Shown here: piece after piece, positions 30,221 through 42,809 of the stretch
Numbering within the stretch: the first letter of the stretch is position 1
Layout: the number at the start of each line of letters is the position of its first letter
Origin: an uncultured Eubacteriales bacterium
GTDB lineage: Bacteria > Bacillota > Clostridia > Oscillospirales > CAG-272
NCBI GenBank assembly: GCA_900547565.1
Contig: URHI01000001.1
Span: forward strand, 3,533-67,532
Length of the DNA stretch: 64,000 bases
Direction: 5' to 3'
Program-made: the position numbers and the translations under genes
Notes under the pieces: model-generated
Told to the model about the DNA's origin: nothing
Databases searched by the model: none
What the model saw: the letters and a program-made list of their open reading frames with translations, nothing else

Positions 30221-30598
30221 ATGCTTACGCTGGATAAGCTGTCGAGGACACCAATATATGAGCAAATAATCAATAATGTACGACGTGAAATCAGCGCCGG
30301 GACGATGGCCGAACAGTCACAGTTGCCGTCAGTACGCGAGTTGTCGGCATTTTTGGGTGTAAACCCCAATACTGTTCAACGCGCCTACAACGAGCTGTGC
30401 TTGCGCGGCTATATAGTAACCGTTGCTGCGCGCGGCGCTTTTGTAGCCGAGGGGGCGCGCGAAAAAATTCTGTCCGAGGGGCGCGATAAACTAAAGCAAC
30501 TGTCTGAATTGGCCGCAGAGCTCAGACACGCCGGTGTGACACAGGACGATATTATTGCGGCCGTGACCGAAAATCTTTCAGGAGGTAGCGAACAATGA
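30221..30598 (+). CDS. GntR family (YtrA-subfamily-like, short) transcriptional regulator
   Basis: PIYEQIINNVRREISAGTM...LPSVRELSAFLGVNPNTVQRAYNEL. At 125 aa it has no large effector domain. Confidence 0.88.
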   Translation: MLTLDKLSRTPIYEQIINNVRREISAGTMAEQSQLPSVRELSAFLGVNPNTVQRAYNELCLRGYIVTVAARGAFVAEGAREKILSEGRDKLKQLSELAAELRHAGVTQDDIIAAVTENLSGGSEQ

Positions 30599-31518
30599 TC
30601 AAAACCAACCGTCTCGACATGTATTTCGGTGATTTCTGCGCCATAAAGCAGCTGACGGTAAGCATACCGGAAGGGTGTGTTTACGGGTTGGTCGGAAGCA
30701 ACGGCGCAGGTAAATCAACGCTGTTGCGTATACTGTCCGGTATTTATCGCCAGACAAACGGCGATGTTACTATTGACAACTGCCGGGTATACGAAAATCC
30801 TTTAATCAAAGAGCAACTCGTGTTTGTGCCGGATGAGTTGTTTTTCATGCCGCAGGCAAATCTGAGGGAAATGGGGCGTATGTGGCAGCGGCTTTACCGG
30901 TCGTTTGATATGTCCCGGCTGTGCGTCCTTGCCGAACATTTTGAGCTTGACATGAACGCCAACATAAACACATTTTCCAAAGGTATGAAACGTCAGGCTG
31001 CAATCATTCTGGCGCTGTCAGCCAAACCAAAATACCTGTTTCTTGATGAGACATTTGACGGGCTCGATCCTATAAAACGAAACATGGTGCGCAATCTTAT
31101 TTACGACGACATAATACAGCGCCATGCGACTGCCATTCTGTCATCTCACTCACTGCGCGAGCTTGAGGACACCTGCGATCAGCTGGCTCTGCTGCACCGC
31201 GGAGGGCTGGTGCTTGAGAGCGACATCCAAAATCTCAAGACCTCACTGTTCAAGGTTCAGGTAGGCTACACACAGCCGTTCGGACGTGACATGTTTTACG
31301 GTGTGAATATGACATCATACCGTCAGTCAGGATCAGTGGCAACGCTCATCGTCCGCGGCGACCGAGATGCACTCCGGCATGAACTTATGAATCGCTCACC
31401 TGCCCCGGCTATACTGGATATCCTGCCGCTTAGCCTTGAAGAAGTCTTCATTTACGAACTGGACGCACTGGGATATTCCGACGGGCTGGATGAATTAAAG
31501 GAGGTACGCCATGAATAA
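30595..31518 (+). CDS. ABC transporter ATP-binding protein
   Basis: Walker A is GSNGAGKSTLL, the signature is FSKGMKRQ and Walker B is LFLDETFDGLD. There is an ATGA overlap with the GntR gene. Confidence 0.88.
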   Translation: MIKTNRLDMYFGDFCAIKQLTVSIPEGCVYGLVGSNGAGKSTLLRILSGIYRQTNGDVTIDNCRVYENPLIKEQLVFVPDELFFMPQANLREMGRMWQRLYRSFDMSRLCVLAEHFELDMNANINTFSKGMKRQAAIILALSAKPKYLFLDETFDGLDPIKRNMVRNLIYDDIIQRHATAILSSHSLRELEDTCDQLALLHRGGLVLESDIQNLKTSLFKVQVGYTQPFGRDMFYGVNMTSYRQSGSVATLIVRGDRDALRHELMNRSPAPAILDILPLSLEEVFIYELDALGYSDGLDELKEVRHE

Positions 31519-32932
31519 AGTATTCGACTTCGGACTTTACCGCGTAGGACTTCGCCGAGTCAAGGTGATCGGACTGTTCTCGGCGCTGGTATGCGTTGTC
31601 GGTTCAGCCATACTTCCCGTGGCCGAAATGTTCACAAAAATAAACTCCACTTATACGTACAGGGTCTCGCCGGGCACATATGCCGTAATGCTCTGGGCAC
31701 TGATCGTTCTCGCGCCGCTTATCATGTATCACATGTTTTCATTTCTGACAAACCGACGCGATTCTGACTTTTATCACTCGCTCCCCTACACCCGCACAAC
31801 CATGTATTTCAGCTTTTTTGCCGCCGCTATGACCTGGATATGGGGGATACTGCTGGCAAGCGTCGCGGTCTGCGGTTTGTTGTGGGTCGTACTGCCTTTC
31901 AATACGATAATCAGCATAAAAGTAGTGTATACCGCGCTTATCAACTTTGCAGTGGCAACACTGTGCACAGCCGCCTTTGTACCGGCCGCGCTGTCAGCGA
32001 CCGGAACAGTCACCTCGGCTTTCCTGCTGTACATCAGCGTCATGTTCACTCCGAAATTCACGGTGTGGATGTTCACAGAATGCCTGCTTATTCACACTCC
32101 CATTCTCTACATCCCGGATAAGTGGCTGAATTACCTGCAATTCGGGCTGTTTGAGCCGTATGCCATGATGCGAAACAACAGCGTCTGCGATTGGGCTTCC
32201 ATTATTTACACCACCGTACTGTCGCTGATATTCGTGGCGGCAGGTTGGATAATATTCCGCAAGCGCCGCAGTGAGACCGCAAGCGTCCCTGCTCCGTCCA
32301 AGGGCTTGCAGGTGCTGTACCGTTGCTGTATCACAATTCCGCTGCTTATGTGCATGATGTACTCGGTATTTGCGGACTCTGTAAACACTCTGACCATCGT
32401 CTTAGCAGTCACGTCAGTCCTGGCATACTATCTGTATGAGCTGATTACCACCAAAAAGATCCGCAAAATGCTTGCCGCTACCAAGTTTGTATGGTTGCTG
32501 CCGGTATTCTGCGCGGTATTTGCCGGAGGTGTACTGCTGACATCGTCGCTCATATATGCCGACACTCCCGACGCTGACAAAATCGACCATATCCGTATTG
32601 CGGCATACAACAACAATGACGCAATCTTGTACCACAAGTATGCCGAAACACCGATTGATGACCCGGAAATCATTGCGTCGACCGTGAAGCTACTGAAAGA
32701 CAAAAGCATAAAATCCTGGGGACGGCAAGCAATGGTGGAAATAACCACCACCTCAGGCCGCAAGCTGATGCGCCAGGTACGCTGCCTTGAAGCACTTATC
32801 TACCTCGAAGATTCGGATAAATATACGGACTTTATGAACCGGCTCTACACATATTACAAATCCAAAAATATTGACCACAGCATCTCCAAGGAATATTTCG
32901 ACTTTGAACAAACAAACTTTATTCAGCAGTAA
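31511..32932 (+). CDS. Multi-pass membrane protein (putative ABC-2-type permease partner) with a C-terminal soluble domain
   Basis: It overlaps the ATPase gene by 8 nt. About 9 hydrophobic segments are followed by a ~120-aa hydrophilic tail. Confidence 0.6.
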   Translation: MNKVFDFGLYRVGLRRVKVIGLFSALVCVVGSAILPVAEMFTKINSTYTYRVSPGTYAVMLWALIVLAPLIMYHMFSFLTNRRDSDFYHSLPYTRTTMYFSFFAAAMTWIWGILLASVAVCGLLWVVLPFNTIISIKVVYTALINFAVATLCTAAFVPAALSATGTVTSAFLLYISVMFTPKFTVWMFTECLLIHTPILYIPDKWLNYLQFGLFEPYAMMRNNSVCDWASIIYTTVLSLIFVAAGWIIFRKRRSETASVPAPSKGLQVLYRCCITIPLLMCMMYSVFADSVNTLTIVLAVTSVLAYYLYELITTKKIRKMLAATKFVWLLPVFCAVFAGGVLLTSSLIYADTPDADKIDHIRIAAYNNNDAILYHKYAETPIDDPEIIASTVKLLKDKSIKSWGRQAMVEITTTSGRKLMRQVRCLEALIYLEDSDKYTDFMNRLYTYYKSKNIDHSISKEYFDFEQTNFIQQ

Positions 32933-33250: not shown

Positions 33251-33261
33251 AGAATAAAAGC

Positions 33262-33298
33262 TTCCCCCTGTGTAACAAATCACACAGGGGGAAATTTT
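33262..33298 (+). terminator. Rho-independent terminator
   Basis: Perfect 12-bp stem ttccccctgtgt / acacagggggaa followed by ATTTT. Confidence 0.75.
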
Positions 33299-33767: not shown

Positions 33768-35038
33768 AGCCCCAGCTCCTTGCGGTAGCGCGCCTCCTCC
33801 TGGTCATTGCACCGGACAAAGTGACCGGGAGTGATCTCACGCATTGAAGGCTTATCAACGCTGTAGTCATGCTCGGCTATTGCGTTGTATATTATACGGG
33901 TGCGCTTTTTTTCGGCACGCGGGTCCGGCAGAGGTATGGCCGACAGTAGCGAACGCGTATACGGATGCAATGGATGTGCAAAAAGCTCATCAGAGCTTGC
34001 CAGCTCAACCATTTTACCGTAATACATAACACCTATGCGGTCTGAGAAATACTTGACTACCGAAAGGTCATGCGCAATAAACAAAATAGTCAAGTTCAGC
34101 TTGGAACGCAGCTCGTTAAGCAAATTAATAACCTGTGCCTGTATAGACACGTCGAGCGCCGACACCGGCTCGTCTGCAATCAGCATATCCGGATTCATAA
34201 TCACAGAACGCGCGATGCCTACTCTCTGTTTTTGGCCGCCCGAAAACTCGTGCGGATAACGTCCTGCATGCTCACGTACCAAACCGACCAGCTCAAGTAT
34301 CTCATACACCTTTTCGTCGATATACTTCTTATCCTTGATACCGTTTATAACCAGCCCCTCGGAAATTATTTCACTAACCGTCATACGCGGATTAAGCGAC
34401 GCAACAGGATCCTGGAATATCATTTGAATCTGCGTGATGAGTTTAGTCTTTTTGGCTACTCTCAGCTTTTCACGGTACTCCTTCTTCAGTGCGGCCTCCT
34501 CGGGCTTGCTGGCAACCGCGGCCAACTTGGGACGATACTCTTCCTCCAGCTTTTTGACAAGTGTGTCGGAATACTCTCGGTCGGAGTTCTTGTGATCATA
34601 TTTTGCCGAACGTATCTCGGCACGGTCTTTTGCAACAGACTGCTTGAGCGACTTCTGGAGCTCGGCGATCCTGGCATCATTAGCCGCCTTATTACCGGGA
34701 TTCTCAGACGAATCCTTCTGTAACTCACGTATTTGAGCGGCAGTTTGCTTCTTGCTGGCCTTTATGTGGTCATAGTAAGACCGAGTACCGGCACATATAC
34801 GCTGCCCCTTGAAATAAATGCTTCCCGATGTTATATCGTATATTTTGAGTATTGAACGGCCGGTCGTTGTCTTACCACAGCCTGACTCGCCGACAAGTCC
34901 GAACACCTCACCCTTTTTGATATCAAAGCTGACATCGTCAACCGCGCGGGTTTCGTGCCCCTTGACTTTGAAATACTGACAGAGATGCTCTACTCTCAGC
35001 AACACTTCCTGCTGTTCATTGTTGTTATTGCTGTTCAT
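33764..35038 (-). CDS. oppF: Oligopeptide/dipeptide ABC transporter ATP-binding protein (OppF-like) with a ~100-aa insertion
   Basis: [40 protein letters not shown] and [13 protein letters not shown]. The charged insertion lies between Walker A and the Q-loop. Confidence 0.85.
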
Positions 35039-37208
35039 TTGCTTCTCCTTCCGTCAGTGATTTTTTCATTCTGGCGATACGGTCGGTTATGATTTTGGGA
35101 ACCTCAACCTTAGGAGCATCGGGATGCAACAGCCATGTTGCCGCAGTATGAGTCGGGGACACCCGGAACATGGGAGGCTGCTTTTCAAAGTCTATCTTCA
35201 TAGCATACCTGTTTCGCTCTGCAAATGCGTCGCCCTCGGGAGGGTAGATCATATTTGGGGGTGTGCCGGGGATAGCATCCAGCTTTTCGTTTGTATCAAG
35301 GTCCGGCATGGAGGATAGCAGCGCCCAGGTGTAAGGGTGACGCGGATCGTAGAAAATATCCTCTGCAGTGCCATATTCCACAATTTTGCCTGCGTACATA
35401 ACAGCAATATTATCCGCCATGTTGGCCACAACACCCAGGTCATGCGTGATGAATATAACCGACAGGTTGCGCTCACGCTTGAGATTATTGATAAGCTCAA
35501 GAATTTGAGCCTGTATAGTAACATCCAATGCCGTTGTCGGCTCATCACAGATGAGGATATCTGGGTTGGCGGACAGCGCAATGGCAATGACTATACGCTG
35601 ACGCATACCGCCCGAGAACTCAAACGGATACTGATAGAAACGGATACGTGGCTCAGGTATGCCGACCTCCTCCATGAGCTTAATGGCCTTTTCCTTGGCC
35701 ATAGCCTTGGTGACCTTATACACCACCGCGGACGCTTTTTCCTTAAGATAGTCGATTAGCGCCACGGCTCGCTGCTGAACATCCTCAGTGCCTGACTCAA
35801 GATAATTCTTGTAATGTTTTTCAAGACGATCGATGATGTCTATGATGTTCTGTCTGAGCATATCAAGGTCGCACACAGACTTCGGAACGACCTTCCAGTC
35901 GACCTGCTTGCCGCGGGCTATCAGCGCATCGCGTTTTGCCGTCTGTCGTGCGAATCTTGCTTCCTCACGCGGGTTATTTGCCTTGTAGTAAAAATATTTG
36001 TCAATGGCATTATCCATACTGGAGCGGAAGGTATATGCTATGCTGTCCTTTACGGTTTCCAGACGATCGATGGAGGTTTCCACAACGTCAGCCAGCTCAC
36101 GGACCAACTTTTTTGCCTCTGCCTTGTCAAAATCTGCGCTGAACAAGCCTTTGATCTGATCAAGGCGCTCGACAACCGTCTCCTTACCTTTAGAGGCATG
36201 GTGTACAGAATACTCGATGCCGCATTTTTCATACTCTATGAACTCATCCATAAATTCGCGGTTAAGCAGTTCAAGTGCACGCGAATTAGCCTCGTCAGCC
36301 GGAACGACCGACAGATCATCGTCAGGATTTTTCATAGTCCAGTATCCGATACGGAAAAAGTTGGGACGTGTAGCCGTCAACAGCTTATCAAGCAGCTCCG
36401 ACACCGCATCAAGCGAAGAACGTATCTCGGCAGGCAGAACCAGCGGCTGATTTTTGGGACGGTTTTTGTCCTCCTTATAGTGGGACACCTGCGTTTTAAG
36501 TTGCTGAGTCAACCCCGTCAGCTCCTCGCCGTGACCTGCCAGCAGATATTTGTCGTTTATCTGTACCAGCTTGGCGCACAAGCTCTTGAGATTGGCGGCT
36601 ACGTCAAGATTTTGCTTACGCTCTATTAAGAACAGCAGCTCGGAAATTTCGCCCTGACATTCCTCGGCACGGTTTCTTGACTCATTGTATACGTTTTCCA
36701 GTTTGATAGCTTCAATATTGAATTTATCAAACGTGCTGATGAGACGTTCAGTCTCATCGGTAGGCTTACCGGATGCTATAATGCACTCCTTGAGCTTGGC
36801 CAGCATCGAATTGAACTCTGCTCTTGCCTCGCGGCGATTGACCTTGTTTTTAAGCAGCATGGCCTCGGTGATCTGCTTGCCGATCTTGACTATGGGGTTA
36901 AGGGAGGACAGCGGATCCTGGAATATCATGGATATTTTATCGCCCCTGATCTTGTACATATCCGTCTCCGGCAGCTTGAGCAGATCTTTGCCGTCGTAGA
37001 GGATTTCACCGCTCTCCACAATGGAGTTACCGGCCAGTATCCCCAGAATGGCCTTGGAGGTGACCGATTTACCCGAACCCGATTCTCCGACTATAGCCAG
37101 TGTTTTGCCGCGTTCGAGATCGAAGGATATGTCTCGCACCGCCTTAAGCGTTCCACCGGGGGTACGGAATGATATTGTCAGTCTTTTGACCTGAAGTATA
37201 TTATCCAT
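35025..37208 (-). CDS. oppD: Oligopeptide ABC transporter ATP-binding protein (OppD-like) with a ~360-aa insertion
   Basis: GESGSGKSVT, ISMIFQDPLSSLNP, then an insertion, then FSGGMRQRIVIAIAL, ICDEPTTALDVT and the C-terminal oligopeptide-type tail HPYTWALL. Confidence 0.85.
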   Translation of the reverse strand: MDNILQVKRLTISFRTPGGTLKAVRDISFDLERGKTLAIVGESGSGKSVTSKAILGILAGNSIVESGEILYDGKDLLKLPETDMYKIRGDKISMIFQDPLSSLNPIVKIGKQITEAMLLKNKVNRREARAEFNSMLAKLKECIIASGKPTDETERLISTFDKFNIEAIKLENVYNESRNRAEECQGEISELLFLIERKQNLDVAANLKSLCAKLVQINDKYLLAGHGEELTGLTQQLKTQVSHYKEDKNRPKNQPLVLPAEIRSSLDAVSELLDKLLTATRPNFFRIGYWTMKNPDDDLSVVPADEANSRALELLNREFMDEFIEYEKCGIEYSVHHASKGKETVVERLDQIKGLFSADFDKAEAKKLVRELADVVETSIDRLETVKDSIAYTFRSSMDNAIDKYFYYKANNPREEARFARQTAKRDALIARGKQVDWKVVPKSVCDLDMLRQNIIDIIDRLEKHYKNYLESGTEDVQQRAVALIDYLKEKASAVVYKVTKAMAKEKAIKLMEEVGIPEPRIRFYQYPFEFSGGMRQRIVIAIALSANPDILICDEPTTALDVTIQAQILELINNLKRERNLSVIFITHDLGVVANMADNIAVMYAGKIVEYGTAEDIFYDPRHPYTWALLSSMPDLDTNEKLDAIPGTPPNMIYPPEGDAFAERNRYAMKIDFEKQPPMFRVSPTHTAATWLLHPDAPKVEVPKIITDRIARMKKSLTEGEANEQQ

Positions 37209-39811: not shown

Positions 39812-39852
39812 GAAAAATCGTAGACAGGCGGAGGTAAATTAATACCTCCGCC
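39812..39852 (-). terminator. Intercistronic hairpin or partial terminator between oppA and oppB
   Basis: On the minus strand: ggcggaggta-ttaatt-tacctccgcc, followed by ...GATTTTT. Confidence 0.5.
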
Positions 39853-39891
39853 CACCCTCATAGGGATATTCAAATCCCGGTTGCTACGTTA

Positions 39892-42381: not shown

Positions 42382-42809
42382 GGTTTTGAAATCTCCTTAT
42401 TTAAAAATTTTGTAACTGAATCTAACACAGGCTGTACCCCGGCACGGAACAGGTATCACCGTTCACCCGAACGACACCGATAATTCACCTTATGTTTTGA
42501 TTATTATATCAAAATGTTAATAAGTTGTCAATACTTTATTTAAATTATAAACATATTTATCCAAATAAGAGCATATAAAATGATTTTTTATCAAACCAAA
42601 TTATCATTTTTAGATAAATAGTCAACAATGACAAGTAAAAATGGCGGCTGCACAGCCGTCGGCAACACAAATTCACACGCAGCATAAGGCGATTCGCCTT
42701 TCCCTCCGGCTCACAAAAGCCACCCCGGCATTGCACTGTATATGAGCTTATATATAATTAGGAAGGTATTTGATTCCCGGGCACATATTGCGTCCGAAAC
42801 AAGCCGCCA

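Follow-up and report, generated by a model that had tools for sequence, protein, structure and literature searches.

The window analysed here is the whole stretch of 64,000 nucleotides (contig URHI01000001.1, positions 3,533 to 67,532, of an uncultured Eubacteriales bacterium of the lineage Oscillospirales; CAG-272). Within it, the list of open reading frames (ORFs) outlines a compact minus-strand operon in the order oppA-B-C-D-F-duf3899. The two ATP-binding cassette (ABC) ATPases of this operon, OppD and OppF, each carry a large insert that is predicted to be helical, and these inserts are the subject of this study (Table 1). Pfam and NCBIfam assign five of the products to an oligopeptide-type importer: an SBP_bac_5 binding protein, two BPD_transp_1 permeases, one of them with OppC_N, and two ABC_tran ATPases with oligo_HPY. 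The oligo_HPY match (PF08352) scores 55.1 bits in OppD and 34.9 bits in OppF against a cutoff of 27.1, and the reading frames of the two genes share 14 nt. Walker A, Q-loop, signature, Walker B and H-loop are present in both proteins, reading GESGSGKS, FQDP, FSGGMRQR, ILICDEPTTALD and ITHDLG in OppD and including the H-loop IAHDLS in OppF. With all five motifs legible in both sequences, an earlier, sequence-only reading of this DNA was right in stating that the inserts leave the catalytic motifs to either side of them intact. The nearest relatives of OppD and OppF in the PDB are Mycobacterium tuberculosis OppABCD (with OppD, Rv1281c) and Escherichia coli OppBCDF and DppBCDF. The curated NCBIfam cutoffs were not reached by OppD (468.5 against 740 for NF043079, 361.8 against 575 for PRK09473) or by OppF (407.5 against 800 for NF043078, 307.6 against 540 for PRK15079), which is expected because the proteins are split by the inserts and divergent from model organisms. 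Gene order and gene sizes are kept in the related loci listed. From its sequence, the operon probably encodes a complete oligopeptide (Opp/PepT-type) ABC importer, this function being predicted.

In a phmmer search against the PDB, OppD residues 2-126 correspond to Rv1281c residues 2-126, and OppD residues 498-690 to Rv1281c residues 122-316. OppF residues 12-81 align with Rv1281c residues 348-425, and OppF residues 193-374 with residues 429-609. The residues between these blocks, ~127-497 of OppD and ~82-192 of OppF, have no counterpart in the Rv1281c alignment and are therefore insertions. In addition, the Pfam ABC_tran match is broken into two stretches in both proteins. The sequence-only reading had placed both inserts correctly, with borders close to the aligned ones (aa 140-503, nt 35700-36790 in OppD; aa 85-203, nt 34450-34790 in OppF). 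The two sites differ in the fold. The OppD insert lies in the helical subdomain between its first and second helices, after the first helix past the Q-loop and before the helix preceding the signature. The OppF insert lies in the beta subdomain, between the strand after the Walker A helix and the strand leading into the Q-loop. The fraction of charged residues is 33% in the OppD insert, compared with 26% in the core of that protein, and reaches about 40% in the OppF insert.

Table 1. Coordinates of the two ATPase inserts, the opp operon and its candidate signals in the window
Feature	Position (nt)	Strand	Basis
OppD insert, ~371 residues (aa ~127-497), predicted all-alpha, in the helical subdomain	35718..36830	minus	phmmer against the PDB
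OppF insert, ~110 residues (aa ~82-192), predicted to form helical hairpins, after the Walker A region and before the Q-loop	34463..34795	minus	alignment to Rv1281c
oppD, ABC ATPase, 727 aa	35025..37208	minus	ABC_tran split in two, oligo_HPY
oppF, ABC ATPase, 424 aa	33764..35038	minus	ABC_tran split in two, oligo_HPY
oppA, family-5 solute-binding lipoprotein, 829 aa	39892..42381	minus	SBP_bac_5; signal peptide and lipobox LFSSC
oppB, permease, 319 aa	38788..39747	minus	Pfam, NCBIfam
oppC, permease, 524 aa, OppC_N helix and permease core separated by ~200 additional residues	37212..38786	minus	Pfam, NCBIfam
DUF3899 gene, small membrane protein, 139 aa	33348..33767	minus	Pfam PF13038
Promoter-like site TTGACA-17-TATAAT with TG, upstream of oppA	42503..42531	minus	12/12 matches; consensus match only
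15-bp GC-rich hairpin with T-rich tail between oppA and oppB, possible partial terminator	39822..39857	minus	hairpin and tail; function inferred
Terminator-like hairpin after the DUF3899 gene, likely operon end	33261..33294	minus	consensus match only

AlphaFold2 predicts the OppD insert to be all-alpha, with predicted local distance difference test (pLDDT) values mostly of 80-95 and helices that include residues 109-145, 150-196, 304-357, 394-431, 448-471 and 477-496. In OppF, the predicted helices of the insert are 86-112, 114-174 and 180-197, at pLDDT 84-97, and short natural OppF inserts read as a plain helix-turn-helix hairpin. Such confident helices in both proteins argue for structured inserts and not for disordered low-complexity sequence. 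According to the model, the OppD insert consists of many helices of 10-54 residues, not of two very long ones. The inserts had been described as charged and helical, and the OppD insert as rich in heptad-like stretches. The AlphaFold2 models and the charge fractions agree with the first two attributes, but a heptad-like coiled coil was not demonstrated, since a crude, home-made heptad score of the inserts was no higher than that of shuffled controls. For this reason we term them helical domains, not demonstrated coiled coils.

The enlarged ATPases are widespread. Both have thousands of homologs of the same length, about 708-763 aa for OppD and about 347-431 aa for OppF. At least 369 GTDB species-representative genomes match two strict motifs of the OppD insert, VDWKV[VI]PK and NP[KR]EE[AK]R[FY], which were designed from the closer insert alignment A5, the diverse alignment A4 being too divergent for patterns. 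The 80 loci listed come, by their record titles, mostly from gut Oscillospiraceae, Lachnospiraceae, Acutalibacteraceae and other Clostridia, with a few from Erysipelotrichaceae or other taxa, and some versions of this Opp system are present on hundreds of contigs. The inserts are thus conserved in orthologs and are not strain-specific junk, as homolog lengths, motif matches and related loci all indicate. Judging from these sequence records, the insert-bearing form is the standard one for this Opp system in hundreds of species of gut Clostridia. The mean top-residue frequency is 0.61 in the OppD insert and 0.91-0.93 in the core; the insert nevertheless holds the invariant motifs PNFFRIGYY, KDSxAYTF, NPKEEARF and GKxVDWKVVPK. 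The OppF insert ranges from 42 to 117 aa among related operons. The ratio of nonsynonymous to synonymous substitution rates (dN/dS) against the ortholog in locus L002 is 0.07 in the insert of OppD and 0.17 in that of OppF, compared with 0.003-0.035 in the cores; these values are rough because dS is saturated. The GC content is steady across both inserts and their flanks. By these codon comparisons, both inserts are under purifying selection.

When 1.84 billion cluster representatives were searched by phmmer with nothing but the OppD insert, 146 proteins matched. In the matches that are long enough, the insert takes the same position as in OppD, at about residues 127-500 of ~700-aa proteins; the shorter ones look like fragments, and the ten matches that were scanned are all OppD-like. 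This search yielded no free-standing family for the OppD insert. Neither insert matches Pfam, NCBIfam or sequences of the PDB, the only trace being a sub-threshold Apolipoprotein match in Pfam. Derivation from another protein family, which the sequence-only reading had raised, found no support in these searches. No internal repeats were found in the inserts, and a profile of 16 diverse inserts had no match in the PDB. Foldseek with the full models returned canonical nucleotide-binding domains (NBDs) only, so no solved structure contains either insert. The suggestion that such inserts are unusual in importer NBDs is in line with this, as phmmer against the PDB and Foldseek gave no solved importer NBD that carries either of them. 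Enlarged OppD and OppF proteins are already in the databases under ordinary names, and no domain family, structure or paper was found for the inserts. One insert-bearing OppD-like protein, P0312 (601 aa), has a degenerate Walker A (GEQNSGKS) and signature (FSREMLQR) and may be a dead paralog or a fragment.

The two inserts occur together. We scored 71 operon pairs, namely related loci with downstream DNA, two of which came from the divergent OppD P0372, and the window itself; the OppD insert and an enlarged OppF spacing between Walker A and Q-loop are found together in all 71. This spacing is 82-157 residues in OppF against 47 in OppD, and the spacing between Q-loop and signature is 423-462 residues in OppD against 58 in OppF. 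The lengths of the two inserts correlate (r = 0.59, without phylogenetic correction). In a mirror-tree analysis, the partial correlation of the insert distances, with the ATPase and permease cores regressed out, was 0.39 under linear control, 0.26 with log-corrected distances and quadratic control, and 0.20 for long OppF inserts only, with permutation p <= 0.002 in all three variants. For reference, the two halves of the OppD insert gave 0.55. The extracytoplasmic region of OppC, an equally fast-evolving control, gave -0.03 to -0.30 with either insert. In addition, two OppD variants that lack the GKxVDWKVVPK loop, P0372 and P0269, are each paired with a short OppF of 348-349 aa.

A search with P0372, the most divergent insert-bearing OppD, uncovered fusions of OppD with OppF. 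P0391, P0392 and P0405, with locus L085 among their sources, are mollicute-like fusions of 1126-1192 aa from low-GC organisms. They have an OppF insert and a K/E-rich insert at the same OppD site as the window OppD, and this K/E-rich insert has no detectable homology to the Clostridial OppD insert (hhalign probability 0.2%). The fusions P0387-P0390 (712-714 aa), which belong to the same clade as the window proteins, are without the OppD insert and keep a ~45-residue OppF hairpin. At locus L084, the operon of P0387 encodes large forms of both OppA and OppC, with a small ORF trailing the ATPase gene; it is adjoined by a Peptidase_M3 gene, which we take to be possibly oligoendopeptidase F. P0132 (486 aa) and P0392 carry a further insert of ~60 residues in the OppF helical subdomain, at the OppD-type site. 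Together, the fusions and these two variants suggest that the two NBD loops are insertion hot spots in this Opp clade. As read from these sequences, the OppD insert is a later, dispensable addition.

Our data suggest that the operon encodes a complete, probably functional Opp importer with folded, lineage-specific helical inserts, and we regard it as probable that these constitute a cytoplasmic regulatory or structural module acting on NBD closure, in which the two inserts cooperate. The ~370-residue domain of OppD sprouts from the loop between the first two helices of the helical subdomain, and the helical hairpin of OppF, of 40 to 115 residues, lies in the beta subdomain between Walker A and the Q-loop. 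By general ABC architecture, the ATP held by the Walker A of OppF would be capped by the signature motif of OppD. Both inserts would then border the same nucleotide site, leaving the other site bare, and would form an accessory module on one side of the NBD dimer. Working together, they may modulate NBD closure and thus ATPase gating and peptide uptake, or dock a partner. We infer the placement around one ATP site, the contact between the inserts and the regulatory role alike. A more specific version, which we consider rather unlikely, is that the inserts form an asymmetric cytoplasmic gate on one ATP site only (OppF Walker A/OppD signature) and couple import to a cytoplasmic cue or partner. 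If true, this would add to type I ABC importers a regulatory principle as yet undescribed for them, one that would be common among gut Clostridia and would have arisen at the insertion site shared with the SMC/Rad50 coiled coil. Gating of one ATP site or docking of a partner would make the inserts a new means of regulating peptide uptake in abundant gut commensals and a natural test case for how ABC dimers can be controlled asymmetrically. With a purely structural role, they would still define a new domain family and a six-gene type of opp operon that includes DUF3899.

Several observations weigh against a cooperating module. The co-variation of the inserts is modest and could reflect rate effects common to cytoplasmic parts. 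The OppF insert varies from 42 to 117 aa while OppD changes little, and three of the five short-OppF operons examined keep the GKxVDWKVVPK loop. The charges of the two inserts do not complement each other, the mean net value being -0.9 in OppD and +3.9 in OppF, and the heptad score does not exceed that of shuffled sequence. The P0387-type fusions show that the OppF hairpin does not need an OppD insert to exist and that basic transport in the clade can do without that insert. Finally, full-text literature searches gave no experiment or paper describing insertions in OppD or OppF.

The sequence-only reading had proposed that the two inserts might pair as a cytoplasmic arm. In a stricter form of this alternative, the OppD and OppF inserts would form a joint coiled-coil arm by obligate hetero-pairing and neither would function alone. 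The co-occurrence in every scored operon, the co-varying divergence of the inserts and the short OppF partners of both loop-less OppD variants would fit such an arm. The hairpin-only fusions P0387-P0390, the three short-insert operons with a full OppD loop, and the missing heptad and charge signals would not, and we hold this alternative to be possible but doubtful. As far as the sequences tell, pairing of the inserts is not obligatory.

Alternatively, the two inserts may be independent modules, the OppF hairpin being old and the OppD insert being a later, separate docking platform for another partner, for instance a peptidase, a regulator, the DUF3899 protein or the N-terminal, cytoplasmic end of OppC. 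The coexistence of an insert-less OppD with a short OppF hairpin agrees with this. The most conserved stretch of the OppD insert includes the loop GKxVDWKVVPK, which is of low pLDDT (below 50 at residues 438-441), and a conserved loop of this kind is typical of a partner-binding site. Among the candidate partners, the Peptidase_M3 gene adjoins a related operon in L084, and most loci have a DUF3899 gene in translational coupling with oppF. In the window, the DUF3899 ORF scores 34.2 bits with PF13038 against a cutoff of 23.4, its start overlaps the oppF stop by 4 nt, and about three hydrophobic segments can be seen by eye in its product. The gene directly follows oppF in 65 of the 82 related loci and is also found in the distant loci L081 and L083. 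However, it is missing from one insert-bearing subclade and apparently present where the OppD insert is absent, with a small ORF in its position following the insert-less OppDF fusion of L084. In addition, the related loci that were compared have no conserved neighbour gene outside the opp operon, and the co-variation of the inserts argues for some coupling. We therefore view independent docking modules as a tentative alternative, about as doubtful as the obligate arm. A 2026 bioRxiv paper places a DUF3899 gene inside the oppA-oppBCDF-tldR operon of Enterococcus faecalis, and DUF3899 may be an uncharacterised sixth subunit of Opp systems.

The inserts had also been likened to a hallmark of non-transport ABC proteins of the SMC/Rad50, UvrA and ABC-F families. 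The analogy stands for OppD in topology, because its insert occupies the topological site of the SMC coiled coil and a weak Pfam SMC_N match (E = 9.5e-6) bridges it. The score of this match is below threshold, at 25.6 bits against a cutoff of 40. A non-transport function on DNA or ribosomes is very improbable, as both proteins combine a single NBD with the oligo_HPY tail specific to Opp, score best against Opp/Dpp ATPases, and are encoded with permeases and a binding protein in a conserved, complete oppABCDF operon. The least credible reading, that the inserts are neutral or selfish (junk sequence, inteins, mobile elements, or artefacts of assembly or annotation), can draw on the faster evolution of the inserts (mean pairwise distance 0.55-0.60 against 0.14-0.17 for the cores) but was rejected on conservation, composition and dN/dS, given continuous reading frames, GC content equal to that of the flanks, fixed sites in hundreds of species, dN/dS well below 1, invariant motifs, a confident predicted fold and no internal repeats.

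The other subunits of the importer have features of their own. OppA matches SBP_bac_5 in two stretches, has no NCBIfam family and is 825-857 aa long in related loci; a typical OppA has roughly 540 aa. The extra residues of OppC, at aa ~85-290, are presumably extracytoplasmic, and OppC is 523-544 aa long across related operons. This extra region evolves as fast as the ATPase inserts, without co-variation with them. The hairpin between oppA and oppB, together with the perfect promoter match upstream of oppA, is consistent with an excess expression of the binding protein via partial termination. At aa ~655-690 (about nt 35140-35245), in its C-terminal domain, OppD shows D, N and F where Rv1281c has Cys, and OppF has one Cys in the region corresponding to these positions. 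The C-terminal Cys residues of Rv1281c bind a 4Fe-4S cluster, and such a cluster is reported for the M. tuberculosis and E. coli Opp/Dpp ATPases. Since OppD is without Cys at the aligned positions, the Fe-S cluster is probably absent in this Opp clade. An unrelated plus-strand unit at positions 30221-32932 has three putative products, read from the translations as a GntR-like regulator of 125 aa, an ABC ATPase of 307 aa and a multi-pass membrane protein of 473 aa.

Structural studies on canonical Opp/Dpp importers (8j5q, M. tuberculosis OppABCD; 8z21, E. coli OppBCDF; 8z1v, DppBCDF; 4fwi, the DppD NBD) offer the closest comparison. Like the window proteins, these systems have the same ATPase motifs, the oligo_HPY domain, a D/F heterodimer, and genes for two permeases and a family-5 binding protein in the same operon. 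The solved chains, however, have neither insert and measure about 325-335 aa per NBD, and the OppA and OppC of the window are much larger. The top-scoring NCBIfam families for both window proteins are those of mollicute OppD and OppF (NF043079 and NF043078; Mycoplasma mycoides JCVI-syn1 MMSYN1_0167/0168). These models are also oversized, with 561 and 649 positions, so enlarged Opp ATPases are already on record. The window proteins nevertheless stay far below their cutoffs (468 against 740 and 407 against 800), and the window inserts alone have no match to either model at E <= 10. The alignment of P0387 residues 84-336 with profile positions 297-550 suggests that the extra positions of the mollicute OppD lie before the Q-loop, at a different site.

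In SMC, Rad50 and RecN, a long helical insertion likewise parts the Walker A/Q-loop lobe from the signature/Walker B lobe, and SMC_N aligns across the OppD insert. Unlike these proteins, OppD has no hinge or zinc hook and no clear heptads, matches SMC_N below threshold, and has an Opp tail in a transporter operon. Its 370-aa insert looks like a multi-helix domain, whereas that of SMC is a two-stranded coiled coil of 600-900 aa. In ABC-F proteins (the NBD1 arm and the inter-NBD linker) and in UvrA, modules inserted in the ABC helical subdomain contact a partner. ABC-F and UvrA are soluble with two tandem NBDs, whereas OppD and OppF have one NBD each, split by an insert, and come with permeases. 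ABC importer ATPases usually carry their accessory domains at the C-terminus, examples being MalK, MetN, ModC and the CBS domains of OpuA. Here, instead, a 370-residue folded domain is predicted within the helical subdomain of one ATPase and a second insert in the beta subdomain of its partner. The window inserts are 5 to 20 times larger than the helix-turn-helix ionic-strength sensor in the OpuA NBD (PMC7673798) and, unlike its two short cationic helices, which sit beside the membrane, probably at a different NBD site, they are not strongly cationic and have no sequence relation to it. What this sensor shares with the window inserts is its nature as a helical, lineage-specific part of an importer NBD, and it gates transport in response to ionic strength, which makes it a functional precedent for a regulatory insert in an importer NBD.

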